DNA of 37,333 bases from a virus. Its lineage: Duplodnaviria; Heunggongvirae; Uroviricota; Caudoviricetes. The first letter of the stretch is position 1; each line of letters starts with the position of its first letter. The notes beneath the pieces were generated by a model. The model saw only the letters and a program-made list of their open reading frames with translations, was not told the origin of the DNA and ran no database searches. Shown in pieces: positions 28,314 to 37,333 of the stretch. Where the stretch lies: the IMG/VR virus record IMGVR_UViG_2563366859_000002; one strand, given 5' to 3'. A program made the translations under genes and the position numbers.

Positions 28314-29260
28314 GCAATCCCCCTGTCTGCAAACTTCCCTTCCCGAACTCCCGTTAACGAATCTTCCCTCAGCAGGTAATCAAAATCTGCCGTCCAGCCC
28401 GTGTCGTTGTCTCCGAAGTAAAACGGCTTGGCCTGATGCACAAACGCCCTGACATACGCTCTGAAACCGTCCACGTTTGGCGTTTTCAGTTGCGGGATGA
28501 TTTTCTTCAGGCGGCGTTTGCGTTTCTCGTTGACCGCAACAGCGTGTGGAAGCCTGTCACCGACTTCGGTGTTGTAGGCGTTCAGGAAGGATTCGTAGTC
28601 GATTCGTTCTGCCTTGCGACGTTCAGGTTTAACCTGCCCATCGCCTCCCCCATTGGGGGGTAGGGGGGTATTATTTATATTCTTGTTAATACCTTCTTGT
28701 TCATGATGTGCGGTTGTTTGTGCGGCTTCATGTGCGCTTTCATGTGCGGCATGTACGCTGAAAGCCGCGCCATTACTGGCTTCATCATGTGCGGCATCAT
28801 GTGCGGTTGTTTGTGCGGCTTCATGTGCGGGGGAATTGTCCATTTTTTGAGCGTATTCATGGTAATTTGTGATGGTGATCACACGACCTTTTTGCTTCTC
28901 TCCATCAATGGAGATCATCCCCTCTTTCACAAAAACCTGAAGCATCCGCTCAACCTGATCACGGCTTGCCGGCTTGCCATGCCTGTCGCATAACTGAAGA
29001 CCTAAATCAGCTGCTGTCACAACCAGTTGACCGGGTTGCAGATGCCATTCATGACCTTTGAAATTCGCTTTGTATGGCTTTCTGGCGGCATTCAGGAGAA
29101 GGTTTTCCCACAGGGTGCGAAGATAAACATCTTTCGCCCATGACTGTTTCAGAATGCTCCGGTACAACGGAATGTAACCAGTTTTCTGGTTCTCCATCCT
29201 GTTGCTCCTGCGCTCGTGTGCGGCGCTGAAATCGTAGATTTTTGCTGTATTGCTCATCAC
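28310..29260 (-). CDS. O: Replication initiator O-like protein, 316 aa, with internal origin
   Basis: N-terminus [11 protein letters not shown] resembles lambda O; iterons lie inside the coding sequence. Confidence 0.8.
28650..28835. repeat. Origin iterons: about 8 copies of a TGTGCG(G/C) core in two roughly 45-bp direct repeats, flanked by a G-rich tract and an AT-rich segment
   Basis: Direct repeats visible at 28701-28736 and 28783-28829; AT-rich 28669-28695. Confidence 0.75.
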
Positions 29261-29532
29261 TACCTGCCTTGACGAAAGACCTTAAGAACATCGTTAAACT
29301 GACTTACGGATATGTCTTCTTTGATCAGCTTTTCCAGAAATGCGTTTGGAATGAACGTATATCCCTCCTCTTTTGGTAGAGACGGGAGCAACGCCCTCGC
29401 CTCAGCCTTCAGAAGCTCAGTTCTGGCAACTTTCACAAAAGAGATTTGAGTTCTTTCATCAATGGAACGAAGGAAGCGCAAACGCTTAGCTTCTTTGTGT
29501 GTATCAGGTGGATTAAAGCCTTTGTTTCGCAT
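29260..29532 (-). CDS. Hypothetical 90-aa protein between cII and O, stop overlapping the O start
   Basis: Internal start MRNKGFNPPD with SD GAGGT; ATGA overlap with the O start codon. Confidence 0.45.
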   Translation of the reverse strand: MRNKGFNPPDTHKEAKRLRFLRSIDERTQISFVKVARTELLKAEARALLPSLPKEEGYTFIPNAFLEKLIKEDISVSQFNDVLKVFRQGR

Positions 29533-30183: not shown

Positions 30184-30295
30184 ATGCCCTCCATAGTAAC
30201 CATGAAACAATAATACGATATGTACTTTTAGAATGCAAACAAAAAAATACATCTTGTGCATGGATGGTTTTAGTACAGAGCGTAATAATAAGGGT
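30184..30295. promoter_or_regulatory. OR region with divergent PR and PRM
   Basis: PR-like TTGCAT-17bp-TATTAT on the minus strand; GTACT(A/T)TTTAG-like motifs shared with the OL region. Confidence 0.55.
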
Positions 30296-30955
30296 ATGAA
30301 AATGAAATGGTATGAACTGGCTAGATCCAGAATGAAAGAGCTCGGCATAACTCAAGAGAAGTTAGCTGAAGAGCTTGGTATGACGCAGGGTGGAATTGGT
30401 CACTGGTTGCGCGGATCTCGTCATCCATCTCTTGACGAGATTGGTGTGGTGTTTAAATACCTTGGTATTGATAATGTCTCATTCAACCACGACGGTACAT
30501 TTTCACCTGTTGGCGAATACTCATCTGCCCCCGTTAAAAAACAATATGAGTACCCTGTTTTTTCTCATGTTCAGGCCGGGATGTTCTCGCCTGAGCTTAT
30601 AACCTTTACCAAAGGTGATGCGGAGAGATGGGTCAGCACAACCAAAAAAGCCAGTGATTGTGCGTTTTGGCTTGAAGTTGAAGGTAATTCCATGACCGCG
30701 CCAACAGGATCCAAGCCAAGCTTTCCTGACGGGATGTTAATTCTCGTTGACCCTGAGCAGGCTGTTGAGCCAGGTGATTTCTGCATAGCCAGACTTGGTG
30801 GTGACGAGTTTACCTTCAAGAAACTGATCAGGGATAGCGGTCAGGTGTTCCTACAGCCACTAAACCCGCAATATCCAATGATTCCATGCAATGATAGCTG
30901 TTCCGTAGTAGGGAAAGTTATCGCCAGCCAGTGGCCTGAAGAGACATTTAGTTAA
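30296..30955 (+). CDS. cI: CI repressor, about 219 aa: heterologous HTH N-domain, lambda-like C-terminal domain
   Basis: C-terminal half ([17 protein letters not shown]...[14 protein letters not shown]) matches lambda CI; N-domain differs. Start at MKMKWYEL is inferred. Confidence 0.85.
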
Positions 30956-31059: not shown

Positions 31060-31115
31060 TTATATTTAGAACATTTTGTATTGACTCGATAAAGTACAAA
31101 TCGTACTATTTAGCC
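31060..31115 (+). promoter_or_regulatory. PL promoter with OL operators
   Basis: TTGACT (31081-31086), 17-bp spacer, TACTAT (31104-31109); downstream leader matches lambda PL transcript. Confidence 0.7.
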
Positions 31116-31149: not shown

Positions 31150-31179
31150 GCTCTTAAAAATTAAGCCCTGAAGAAGGGC
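31150..31179 (+). promoter_or_regulatory. nutL: boxA GCTCTTAAAAA and boxB GCCCTGAAGAAGGGC
   Basis: Sequence matches lambda nutL as recalled. Confidence 0.85.
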
Positions 31180-31377
31180 AGCATTCAAAGCAGAAGGCTT
31201 TGGGATTGGATGAATGAGCAGGCTGATGCTCGACCAATGTATAAACAGCGCTCATGGCAAGCAGTAACCAATCTGCGCCTCAAGACAGCGTCACTGGTAG
31301 TGCGGGCGCTCTAACCAGTAAGCCGGGGTTCAGCGCCGGCCATCCAATCACCAAAGCTAACTGACAGGAGAATCCAG

Positions 31378-31704
31378 ATGGATGCACAAACACGCCGCCG
31401 CGAACGTCGCGCAGAGAAACAGGCTCAATGGAAAGCAGCAAATCCCCTGTTGGTTGGGGTAAGCGCAAAACCAGTTAACCGCCCTATTCTCTCGCTGAAT
31501 CGCAAACCGAAATCACGAGTAGAAAGCGCACTGAATCCGATAGACCTTACGGCGCTGGCTGAATACCACGAACAGATTGAAAGCAACCTGCAACGTATTG
31601 AGCGCAAGAATCAGCGCACATGGTACAGCAAGCCACGCAGTGAAATGGGTGTGACTTGTGTTGGTCGCCAGAAAATGAAATTAGGCAGCAAACCACTTAT
31701 TTGA
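31378..31704 (+). CDS. N: Antiterminator N, 108 aa
   Basis: MDAQTRRRERRAEKQAQWKAANPLLVGVSAKPVNRP... is near-identical to lambda N. Confidence 0.95.
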   Translation: MDAQTRRRERRAEKQAQWKAANPLLVGVSAKPVNRPILSLNRKPKSRVESALNPIDLTALAEYHEQIESNLQRIERKNQRTWYSKPRSEMGVTCVGRQKMKLGSKPLI

Positions 31705-32017: not shown

Positions 32018-32045
32018 AGGCCGCATAGTCGGCCTTTATTTTTAA
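32018..32045 (+). terminator. Rho-independent terminator (tL1-like)
   Basis: Stem AGGCCG/CGGCCT followed by TTATTTTT. Confidence 0.55.
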
Positions 32046-35234: not shown

Positions 35235-35821
35235 TGAAACAAATGTCACTAATTGAGATGGATGGTTTTCTGAAAGGTAAATGCATCCCAAGTGATTTAA
35301 AGGTTAACGAAACAAACGCTGAATATCTGGTGCGTAAATTTGCTGAAGCGGAGGCCAAGATTTCGGCTCTGTCCGAAGACCACCAGAAAGCGATTGAGTC
35401 AATTAAGCAGGCTGATGCAGCTGTTAAGTTGGCACACGAGAAGTTTTCGGCGCTGGCGGCGGAGAATGCGGCAATGCATGAAACTATTGAAGCCGTTCGC
35501 AGTGTTGCGGATAACTCCAGTGGAATTGCCGGATGGCATTTGAATGGCGATATCGCCACATGGGAAGAGATTCTTCCTGAAATTAACGATATCGAAACCC
35601 CAGCCACCAACTCTTTCCTGTCGGAACTGCGGGCACAGGGGGTGGATGCTGCTATAGGAGCTGCAAAAAATCTGGTGGCCCAAGAATATGAGTATAAGGA
35701 TTTCAAAGCGGCGCAGAGTGATTGCTGTATGCACCCTGGTTCAGACCTGGTAGGGAAGGTTGAAATGACTGAGTGGTTAGTTGACTTTGCTGCCCAGCTT
35801 CGCAAAGGAGGCAACCAGTGA
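35231..35821 (+). CDS. Hypothetical coiled-coil protein, about 196 aa (Ea22-region type)
   Basis: Ala-rich helical sequence; start inferred at [11 protein letters not shown]. Confidence 0.45.
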
Positions 35822-36423
35822 GCAAGATTAACTATCAAGCACTGCGTGAAAAGGCAGAGAAAGCAACATGTGGCGAGTGGTCGCTCGAATATGGAGAGGG
35901 CCGATTTGATGGTGATGATGCACTAATTCATCGCGAGGCTGATGGATATATTCCCATTTGCAGAATTGAAGGAGCGCATCCTGAAAGCGGTTTCGATGAA
36001 GATTTCCAAATGGAACAGCAGGCAAATGCTGAATTCATCGCCGCAGCCAATCCGGCTACCGTGCTGACACTGCTGGACGAGCTGGAAACAGCAAAAAAGC
36101 GCATAGCAGAACTGGAAGCCGAACCCGTAAGCCAAACTTACAAGTTGAACGAGCTATCGGGCAACTCTCCGGTAACTCCGGATGGTTGGATAAGATGTAG
36201 TGAGCGAATGCCAGAAATGGGAGAGCGACAATGCTATGTGTTAGCAGCTGACTTTAAAAACAACTACCCGCCAAACATCCCCAACACTCAGGTCGGTGTA
36301 TATGGCGACTGGTTTAATGATGGCAATCCCACTTGGGATGACGGTGATGGCGAAGACCTGTATCTCAAAGAGGTAACCCACTGGATGTCGCTACCAGAAC
36401 AGCCTCGATTAAAGGAGCTATAA
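35818..36423 (+). CDS. Ead/Ea22-like protein with DUF551-like C-terminal domain, 201 aa, GTG start
   Basis: N-terminus [20 protein letters not shown] is typical of Ead/Ea22-like proteins; C-terminal WIRCSERMPE...VTHWMSLPEQP. Confidence 0.6.
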   Translation: MSKINYQALREKAEKATCGEWSLEYGEGRFDGDDALIHREADGYIPICRIEGAHPESGFDEDFQMEQQANAEFIAAANPATVLTLLDELETAKKRIAELEAEPVSQTYKLNELSGNSPVTPDGWIRCSERMPEMGERQCYVLAADFKNNYPPNIPNTQVGVYGDWFNDGNPTWDDGDGEDLYLKEVTHWMSLPEQPRLKEL

Positions 36424-36537
36424 TAGTGAACTATTATATCTATTTGTATTAAAAGAGTTTTTATAAAATAAATCTTCCAAAGCATGTAAAAACACTGTTA
36501 ATCTTAACGTGTGTGAAACGTGAAGAGAGGTGTTGAA

Positions 36538-36819
36538 ATGAGCATTCATGATTTGTGTGAAGATCAAGAGCAATGGGCTATGCAGACCCTTATGGGATCA
36601 GGAGTTCTTGCAAGGTGCAGTATCCATAACGATGTAATTTTAGACAGCGGAAATGATGCTTCTTCTGCTTATAAATTAGGAACTTACCTATATCAAAAAG
36701 ATAATAGCTGCAACTTATTCAATACTCTTACTGAAGCCCGCGACGCAATAAAGGATGCATATGAATCGTATTGTGGGATCGATGATTGCCCACAATGCTC
36801 AAAATACATTGACGATTAA
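36538..36819 (+). CDS. Hypothetical Cys-rich protein, about 93 aa, AT-rich moron
   Basis: Seven Cys including a C-terminal CPQC; preceded by an AT-rich promoter-like region; start at second ATG with SD GAGG. Confidence 0.45.
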   Translation: MSIHDLCEDQEQWAMQTLMGSGVLARCSIHNDVILDSGNDASSAYKLGTYLYQKDNSCNLFNTLTEARDAIKDAYESYCGIDDCPQCSKYIDD

Positions 36820-36837
36820 TAATATGAACAAGTAACT

Positions 36838-36895
36838 ACCCTCGCACTCGCGGGGATTTCTTTTATCTGAACTCGCTACGGCGAGTTTTGTTTTA
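36838..36895 (+). terminator. Two tandem rho-independent terminators
   Basis: Stems CCTCGC/GCGGGG and ACTCGC/GCGAGT, each followed by a T-run. Confidence 0.6.
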
Positions 36896-36907
36896 TGGAG
36901 ATGATAA

Positions 36908-37075
36908 ATGCACTTCCGAGTCACAGGTGAATGGAATGGAGAACCATTCAACAGAGTTATCGAAGCAGAGAACATCAATGACTGCTATGACCACTGGATG
37001 ATATGGGCGCAGATAGCACATGCAGACGTAACCAATATTCGAATTGAAGAACTGAAAGAACACCAAGCCGCCTGA
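36908..37075 (+). CDS. Hypothetical 55-aa protein (absent from the ORF track)
   Basis: SD GGAG 8 nt before ATG; ends inside the terminator hairpin. Confidence 0.35.
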   Translation: MHFRVTGEWNGEPFNRVIEAENINDCYDHWMIWAQIAHADVTNIRIEELKEHQAA

Positions 37076-37090
37076 AGGCGGTTTTTTATT
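37066..37090 (+). terminator. Rho-independent terminator before xis
   Basis: Stem GCCGCC/GGCGGT followed by TTTTTTATT. Confidence 0.55.
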
Positions 37091-37132
37091 GCCTGATTTG
37101 CAGGTTCGATTCCCTATTTGGAGATAGCACTC

Positions 37133-37333
37133 ATGCAACACGAACTACAACCTGATTCACTGGTTGATTTGAAATTCATCATGGCCGATACTGGCTTCGG
37201 TAAAACCTTCATCTATGACCGGATTAAGTCCGGAGACCTGCCTAAAGCCAAAGTTATCCACGGGCGAGCAAGATGGTTATATCGTGACCATTGTGAATTC
37301 AAAAATAAACTCTTAAGCCGCGCCAATGGGTAA
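37133..37333 (+). CDS. xis: Excisionase / AlpA-family DNA-binding protein, about 66 aa
   Basis: Motif TGFGKTFIYDRIKSGDLPKAKVIHGRARW typical of AlpA/Xis winged-helix proteins; last gene of the PL operon; stop at the window end. Confidence 0.6.
   Translation: MQHELQPDSLVDLKFIMADTGFGKTFIYDRIKSGDLPKAKVIHGRARWLYRDHCEFKNKLLSRANG

Follow-up and report, generated by a model that had tools for sequence, protein, structure and literature searches.

The distal end of the early-left operon in this viral DNA is very probably the 'exo-xis' segment of a lambda-type prophage, made up of accessory, mosaic early genes that depend on PL and N. The window, by which we mean the whole stretch of 37,333 nucleotides that was analysed, ends in this segment, and the features described below lie on the + strand unless stated otherwise. 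An ORF that a first-pass annotation had called a cysteine-rich moron can be relabelled as the gene for a predicted Ea8.5-family zinc-finger protein, and an unlisted ORF of 55 aa as lambda orf55. Earlier work on lambda and on an E. coli O111 prophage protein (PDB 2M7A) has already described the segment's genes, protein fold and terminators. As a discovery the segment carries small weight; its value lies in annotation. Additionally, its terminator-bearing linkers provide a clear example of lambdoid accessory cassette exchange.

The segment was followed from 35,818 to the end of the window at 37,333. Its first gene (35818..36423) is a fusion of an Ead/Ea22-like N-terminal part (Pfam PF13935, E 1.8e-23) and a DUF551 C-terminal part (PF04448, E 1.5e-16); in RefSeq, close relatives are named DUF551, ead/Ea22-like or 'dATP/dGTP pyrophosphohydrolase domain-containing'. 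An AT-rich intergenic spacer follows (36424..36537), within which the Shine-Dalgarno sequence GAGAGG (36525-36530) is placed 7 nt 5' of the ATG start of a 93-aa ORF (36538..36819). This ORF, with its C-terminal CPQC, was found as the first-pass annotation had described it, save that its product contains six cysteines (C7, C27, C58, C79, C84 and C87) and not the seven that had been claimed.

A search for homologues and a metal-binding motif, suggested earlier as a check on the moron reading, placed the 93-aa protein in the Ea8.5 family. The protein matched Pfam PF20735 (Lambda_ea8_5) with a score of 56.6 bits (cut-off 27; E 4.2e-15), covering profile positions 1-90 of 90, and matched phrog_6325 with an E of 8.8e-56. 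In a protein-level search, lambda Ea8.5 aligned with it across all 93 residues at 39.8% amino acid identity. Furthermore, 92 of its 93 residues are identical to PDB 2M7A, which the PDB labels as the E. coli O111:H- 11128 ORF ECO111_1119, similar to bacteriophage lambda ea8.5. Among 1.8 billion representative proteins 85 relatives were found, nearly all of them 85-100 aa in length, and 66 of these were taken into an alignment. Besides Met1, the only invariant columns in this alignment were C27, H30, C84 and C87, which give the zinc site the pattern C27-x2-H30 ... C84-x2-C87. The three remaining cysteines (C7, C58 and C79) lie outside the conserved set and are peculiar to the window allele. An AlphaFold model of the protein (pLDDT 84.6) matched 2M7A and 2M7B only within the PDB. 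Judged from its sequence, the protein is a predicted zinc-binding member of the Ea8.5 family with the hybrid homeodomain/zinc-finger fold. Neither the Ea8.5-like protein nor Orf55 was matched by any NCBIfam or PADLOC (anti-phage defence) profile. When the DNA of the ea8.5-like cassette (36400-36835) was compared with deposited phage genomes there was no match, low stringency included; the lambda-type ea8.5 emerged at the protein level only.

Two tandem hairpins with T-tracts lie 3' of the Ea8.5-family gene, as had been reported in the first-pass annotation. The first terminator spans 36840..36865 (hairpin 36840-36855, dG -10.1 kcal/mol) and the second 36869..36897 (hairpin 36869-36888, dG -11.9 kcal/mol); a third, likewise with a T-tract, is found at 37065..37089 (hairpin 37065-37084, dG -11.9 kcal/mol). 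Lambda positions 29091-29360, which extend from just 3' of the ea8.5 stop codon to just 5' of xis, align almost base for base with the block from about 36833 to 37095 of the window, all three hairpins included. The lambda exo-xis hairpins had already been predicted as t3, t4 and t5 (PMC4195576, Table 4). The alignment identifies the three window hairpins as predicted rho-independent terminators, the respective counterparts of t3, t4 and t5, and we use these names below.

The gene orf55 (36908..37075; phrog_676, E 6.6e-40) occupies the interval between t4 and t5. A 55-aa ORF ending in its own terminator had been noted before as missed by the ORF track; both the ORF and its terminator are present, but it had been missed only for its short length and is the lambda gene. 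The encoded protein is identical to lambda Orf55 at 55 of 55 residues. The two genes differ by five synonymous and no nonsynonymous changes, and because all five codon differences are synonymous there is strong evidence that orf55 is a real, selected gene. Its ribosome-binding site, GGAG, is reached by the tail of the second terminator, and its stop codon sits within the loop of the third hairpin.

Both ORFs are short and their RefSeq name is mostly 'hypothetical protein', as would be expected if one or both had arisen by chance, or were the remains of decay, within DNA that does not code for protein. The likelihood of this is negligible. The Ea8.5-like protein has a Pfam match above the gathering score, and an NMR structure exists of a protein essentially identical to it; the exact sequences of the Ea8.5-like protein and of Orf55 are found on 189 and at least 1000 contigs. 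The idea is refuted by the Pfam match, by the identity with 2M7A and by the restriction of the orf55 changes to synonymous positions.

We also considered the fold of Orf55. Its AlphaFold model (pLDDT 90.8) shows a beta-beta-alpha-beta fold, and the top PDB match of this model was T7 Gp2 in its complex with E. coli RNA polymerase, with a probability of 0.93-0.99 and a TM of 0.57-0.70 at a weak E of 0.04-0.37. For chain 4lk0_M the fold search gave a probability of 0.99, a TM of 0.57-0.63 and an E of 0.04, a statistically weak value (E > 0.001). By sequence, no PDB chain matched Orf55 in any meaningful way. A Gp2-like model of Orf55 has already been published as an explicitly speculative proposal (PMC8614690) and is reproduced by our fold search; Orf55 carries a substitution at one of two arginines that are important in Gp2 (PMC8614690). 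Orf55 may engage RNA polymerase as T7 Gp2 does.

The last ORF of the window is torI (37133..37333), an excisionase (xis) of the KplE1/HK620 type that was assigned through phrog_66 and an identical region named torI in RefSeq. It marks the end of the prophage and adjoins dsdC in related genomes. Between t5 and torI lies a predicted pI-type promoter region (37089..37126), recognised by homology to a 'phage integration' promoter and cII site annotated in HK620; positions 37028-37333 of the window are 97.7% identical to the HK620 sequence (L008 1501-1806). Here TTGCCTGATTTGC, with the motif TTGC-N5-TTGC (37089-37101), stands directly 3' of the third terminator as the counterpart, by homology to the HK620 annotation, of the cII-binding site and pI promoter. 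Since this region is homologous to the HK620 cII site and pI, the third terminator abuts a predicted cII-dependent promoter before torI. Both the gene order and the operon context bear out the earlier placement of the unit next to xis, where the early-left (PL) operon ends.

An Rfam search of 35500-37333 produced nothing at gathering level, the sub-threshold output consisting of a spurious microRNA match and a weak match to the Salmonella sRNA family STnc130. The latter falls on the minus strand (37056-37183) and scores 26.8 bits against a gathering score of 55. One end of it is the t5 hairpin read in reverse, without a U-tract. The STnc130 match is probably due to chance or a remnant.

The DNA that carries the terminators recurs in phages with a different gene content. 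In phages with other genes between them, the t3/t4 linker (36833-36905) and the t5 linker (37024-37090) show 94-98% identity to those of the window, and both are retained in Sf6 and in strain 13E0780, where orf55 is replaced by another ORF of 99-103 aa. A faint ClpX-type zinc-finger signal was seen in ORFs of this size located in the orf55 place, namely Sf6 gene 19 (L007 1563-1874) and L004 3006-3305; Sf6 gene 20 and HK620 hkaD, located upstream, are Lar-like. Related prophages also bear extra DNA placed exactly at the linkers. In E. coli 2021CK-01784 (L009 1048-1963) t3 is separated from t4 by an inserted ORF of 266 aa, which gave no Pfam or PADLOC match and has the same GGATTTCTTTTAT tract at each of its two joints. 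E. coli YZ3-11 (L010 1389-1691) has about 300 bp inserted between t5 and the pI region, ending in a hairpin and T-tract. The gene neighbourhoods of two distant relatives were inspected as well; in one, another lambdoid phage carries an Ea8.5-family gene (34% identical) in its nin region, between the replication genes and RusA/Q, with no terminator 3' of it (L011 3001-3279). Because this distant member resides in the nin region, the Ea8.5 family is a mobile cassette unbound to the exo-xis slot. Likewise, because the linkers are common to phages with other genes and the nin-region member has no terminator, we conclude that the terminators belong to conserved linkers flanking swappable cassettes and not to the Ea8.5 gene itself. 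The terminator-bearing linkers double as conserved recombination joints, with different cassettes exchanged or inserted between them in different prophages.

The conservation of these linkers raises the question of whether the three hairpins are themselves the main role of the segment, insulating xis/torI and the cII-dependent pI from non-antiterminated transcription while the small ORFs are carried as passengers. The retention of both linkers around other genes would fit such a role, as would the abutment of t5 on the pI/cII site and the presence of the orf55 block in 3084 of 5426 E. coli genomes. Conversely, the model of Orf55 is confident and its gene bears clear signs of purifying selection on the protein, all five differences being synonymous, and the Ea8.5 family has an invariant zinc site and a solved fold. 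We therefore regard a primary role for the hairpins as improbable; moreover, it would complement our reading of the segment as a set of accessory early genes and not replace it.

The boundaries of the ea8.5-like cassette were defined by BLAST of 35500-37333 against related loci. On the left, other prophages with the window allele become homologous from 36373 or 36381 onwards, within the 3'-terminal part of the Ead/Ea22-DUF551 gene, so that the conserved last 45 or so nucleotides of that gene (36373/36381 to 36423) constitute the left recombination joint. The right joint of the allele falls at about 36828-36833, just 5' of t3. Further downstream, homology to lambda stops at 37095, where the xis modules diverge. 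In every case the spacer travels with the ea8.5-like allele. The allele is present in 111 of the 5426 complete E. coli genomes, and in 110 of these 111 it is at least 99% identical. It (WP_000022062.1) precedes three different integration modules: torI by dsdC, a lambda-type xis-int by torS, and a wrbA-type module. The allele was also observed on a plasmid, where the same module of ea22, ea8.5-like gene, orf55, xis and int lies in a 111-kb record, pSM107_MCR (NZ_CP130669.1, 27343-32776; L006). HK620 is without both the ea8.5-like and the orf55 cassette, and in Sf6 a Lar-like gene occupies the ea8.5 slot.

These observations bear on the first-pass description of the unit as an independently transcribed insertion. 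A moron in the strict sense would have its own promoter in the spacer, which would drive the Ea8.5-like gene independently, in the repressed prophage included, while t3 and t4 kept the transcript from reaching xis. Several features are compatible with such an arrangement. The spacer and the gene move as one unit between flanking mosaic joints, HK620 lacks the gene and Sf6 has another in its place, and two strong predicted terminators stand directly 3' of it. The base composition is also suggestive: the 114-bp spacer has 27.2% G+C, placing it in the lowest 0.45% of 114-bp windows, and the gene has 38.7%, compared with 48.7% for the flanking gene and a window mean of 46.4%. Low G+C as a sign of recent insertion was nevertheless ruled out, as lambda ea8.5 also has 38.7%. 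Because the lambda gene has identical G+C, the low value is better read as a property of the Ea8.5 family. Lambda carries its homologous ea8.5 in the same slot, followed by t3/t4, orf55 and t5, which argues against an insertion. The terminators 3' of the gene, for their part, are components of the conserved linker and not of the cassette, and the nin-region member of the family has none.

The remaining argument for autonomy is the spacer, which had been described as an AT-rich, promoter-like region of about 100 bp. The AT-richness is real, though other stretches of the PL operon are equally AT-rich. The promoter did not materialise: a consensus scan of the spacer detected no sigma-70 site. Hexamers resembling a -10 element do occur in or near the spacer (TATAAT at 36419, TATTAT at 36432 and TAAAAT at 36464). 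A position-weight scan allowing spacers of 14-20 bp gave TTAAAG-17-TATTAT as the best site (score 10.0; -10 element at 36432); dinucleotide shuffling of this stretch reached the score in 36% of cases, and 10.5% of other windows reached it too. The spacer has no RNA structure (fold z-score 0.06), which ruled out a riboswitch or leader RNA. At the sequence level, 'promoter-like' here amounts to AT-richness only. With no promoter above chance, with lambda ea8.5 treated as a PL early gene (PMC8614690) and with the terminators located in the linker, the claim of independent transcription is not upheld, and we consider a moron of this kind unlikely. We read the unit instead as an accessory cassette, mosaic and of lower G+C, in the terminal part of the PL operon.

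A weaker form of autonomy deserves mention. The spacer might hold a weak promoter, perhaps silenced by H-NS or dependent on stress, from which the Ea8.5 allele would be made in the lysogen with t3 and t4 shielding xis. We rate this as unlikely. If true, it would mean that a prophage zinc-finger/homeodomain-like protein acts on host regulation or cell division during lysogeny.

The wider operon agrees with the reading of the segment as PL/N-dependent. A cI-like repressor gene (30233-30955) is followed by a PL candidate, TTGACT-17-TACTAT, at about 31081-31109 (weight score 11.9). Next come boxA and boxB elements identical to those of lambda nutL (GCTCTTAAAAATTAAGCCCTGAAGAAGGGCAGC, about 31150-31182) and an N-like antiterminator gene (31378-31704). 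Further genes of the same strand lie 3' of the N-like gene, namely cIII, RecT, a Gam-like gene and several small genes. Terminator-like sites on the + strand are met early in the operon, at 32018, 32425 and 32463, much as tL1-tL3 in lambda; between 34000 and 36840 a consensus scan found no such site on this strand. Because terminator-like sites thus occur elsewhere in the operon, terminators 3' of ea8.5 conform to the general pattern of an antiterminated operon and are not the mark of an autonomous gene.

The lambda PL strand has the order ea22, ea8.5, orf55, xis, int, and the exo-xis genes, lambda ea8.5 included, are early genes transcribed from pL (PMC8614690, PMC4195576). By analogy, loss of the repressor would allow RNA polymerase to start at PL. 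The N-like protein would then modify the polymerase at nutL, permitting read-through of all terminators, and the Ea8.5-like protein and Orf55 would be made as early proteins. Polymerase lacking the N modification would halt at t3, t4 or t5. As the hairpins would stop unmodified polymerase, the last genes and xis would depend on antitermination. In lambda, the transcript levels of ea8.5, ea22 and orf73 differ from those of the genes that precede them, and it has been suggested that an internal promoter, p1, lies 5' of orf73 (PMC4195576). Because of these differences and the proposed p1, exo-xis transcription may exceed a single PL transcript in complexity.

The work on lambda also offers some indication of what the two proteins do. 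The lambda ea8.5 gene is non-essential (PMC10695390). Extra copies of ea8.5 are cited as repressing cII-dependent promoters (Los 2008, as cited in PMC7093339), and the Ea8.5 fold is cited in later literature as pointing to the binding of a regulator or nucleic acid (Kwan 2013). According to a further report (Sergueev 2002, as cited in PMC9239242), orf73, ea22, ea8.5 and orf55 are implicated in a block of host replication initiation. By extension from lambda, Ea8.5 is probably a small zinc-dependent binder of a regulator or nucleic acid. The Ea8.5-like protein and Orf55 would probably serve as dispensable accessory regulators, biasing the lysis-lysogeny decision and the host cell cycle.

Morons of lambdoid phages include, for example, lambda lom and bor and the HK97 morons (Juhala et al. 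2000; Hendrix et al. 2000). The unit described here resembles these in being a small accessory gene of lower G+C with mosaic joints, intrinsic terminators 3' and a patchy distribution among relatives. It differs from them in that no promoter rises above chance, in its co-directional position inside an antiterminated early operon, in the presence of a lambda homologue in the same slot, and in that its terminators are those of a shared linker.

The closest counterpart is lambda ea8.5, which shares with the window gene its length of 93 aa, its slot between an ea22-type gene and orf55/xis, the C-x2-H ... C-x2-C site and its G+C content. The differences lie in the modest protein identity given above and in the three additional non-conserved cysteines of the window protein. 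The spacer 5' of the gene also differs, being 114 bp at 27% G+C in the window compared with 191 bp at 39% in lambda. The structures of two Ea8.5 homologues have been solved (Kwan et al. 2013, Biochemistry 52:3612), namely 2M7A from E. coli O111:H- 11128 (ECO111_1119) and 2M7B from Pseudomonas putida (PP_3909). For Orf55, the comparison of fold is with T7 Gp2 (PDB 4LK0, 4LLG), which inhibits the RNA polymerase of E. coli and has a small beta-beta-alpha-beta fold like that of the Orf55 model, yet a sequence identity of only 23-25%.

Conserved stretches of a similar kind have been described in HK620 and Sf6 as 'boundary sequences' (Clark et al. 2001; Casjens et al. 2004), with bsq2 and bsq3 annotated in the Sf6 record. 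As in the window, these are short conserved stretches that flank exchangeable cassettes near xis. The t3/t4 linker is kept in Sf6 yet bears no boundary-sequence annotation there, whereas bsq2 is the torI/pI region, homologous to positions from about 37024 to 37333 of the window. With lambda, finally, the order ea8.5, t3, t4, orf55, t5, xis is held in common, and Orf55 (phrog_676) is 100% identical. The t3-t5 hairpins and their spacing are very nearly unchanged, a few substitutions of single bases in the hairpins aside. Beyond the orf55 block the two diverge, the window continuing into the pI promoter and the KplE1/HK620-type torI excisionase and lambda into its own xis-int.
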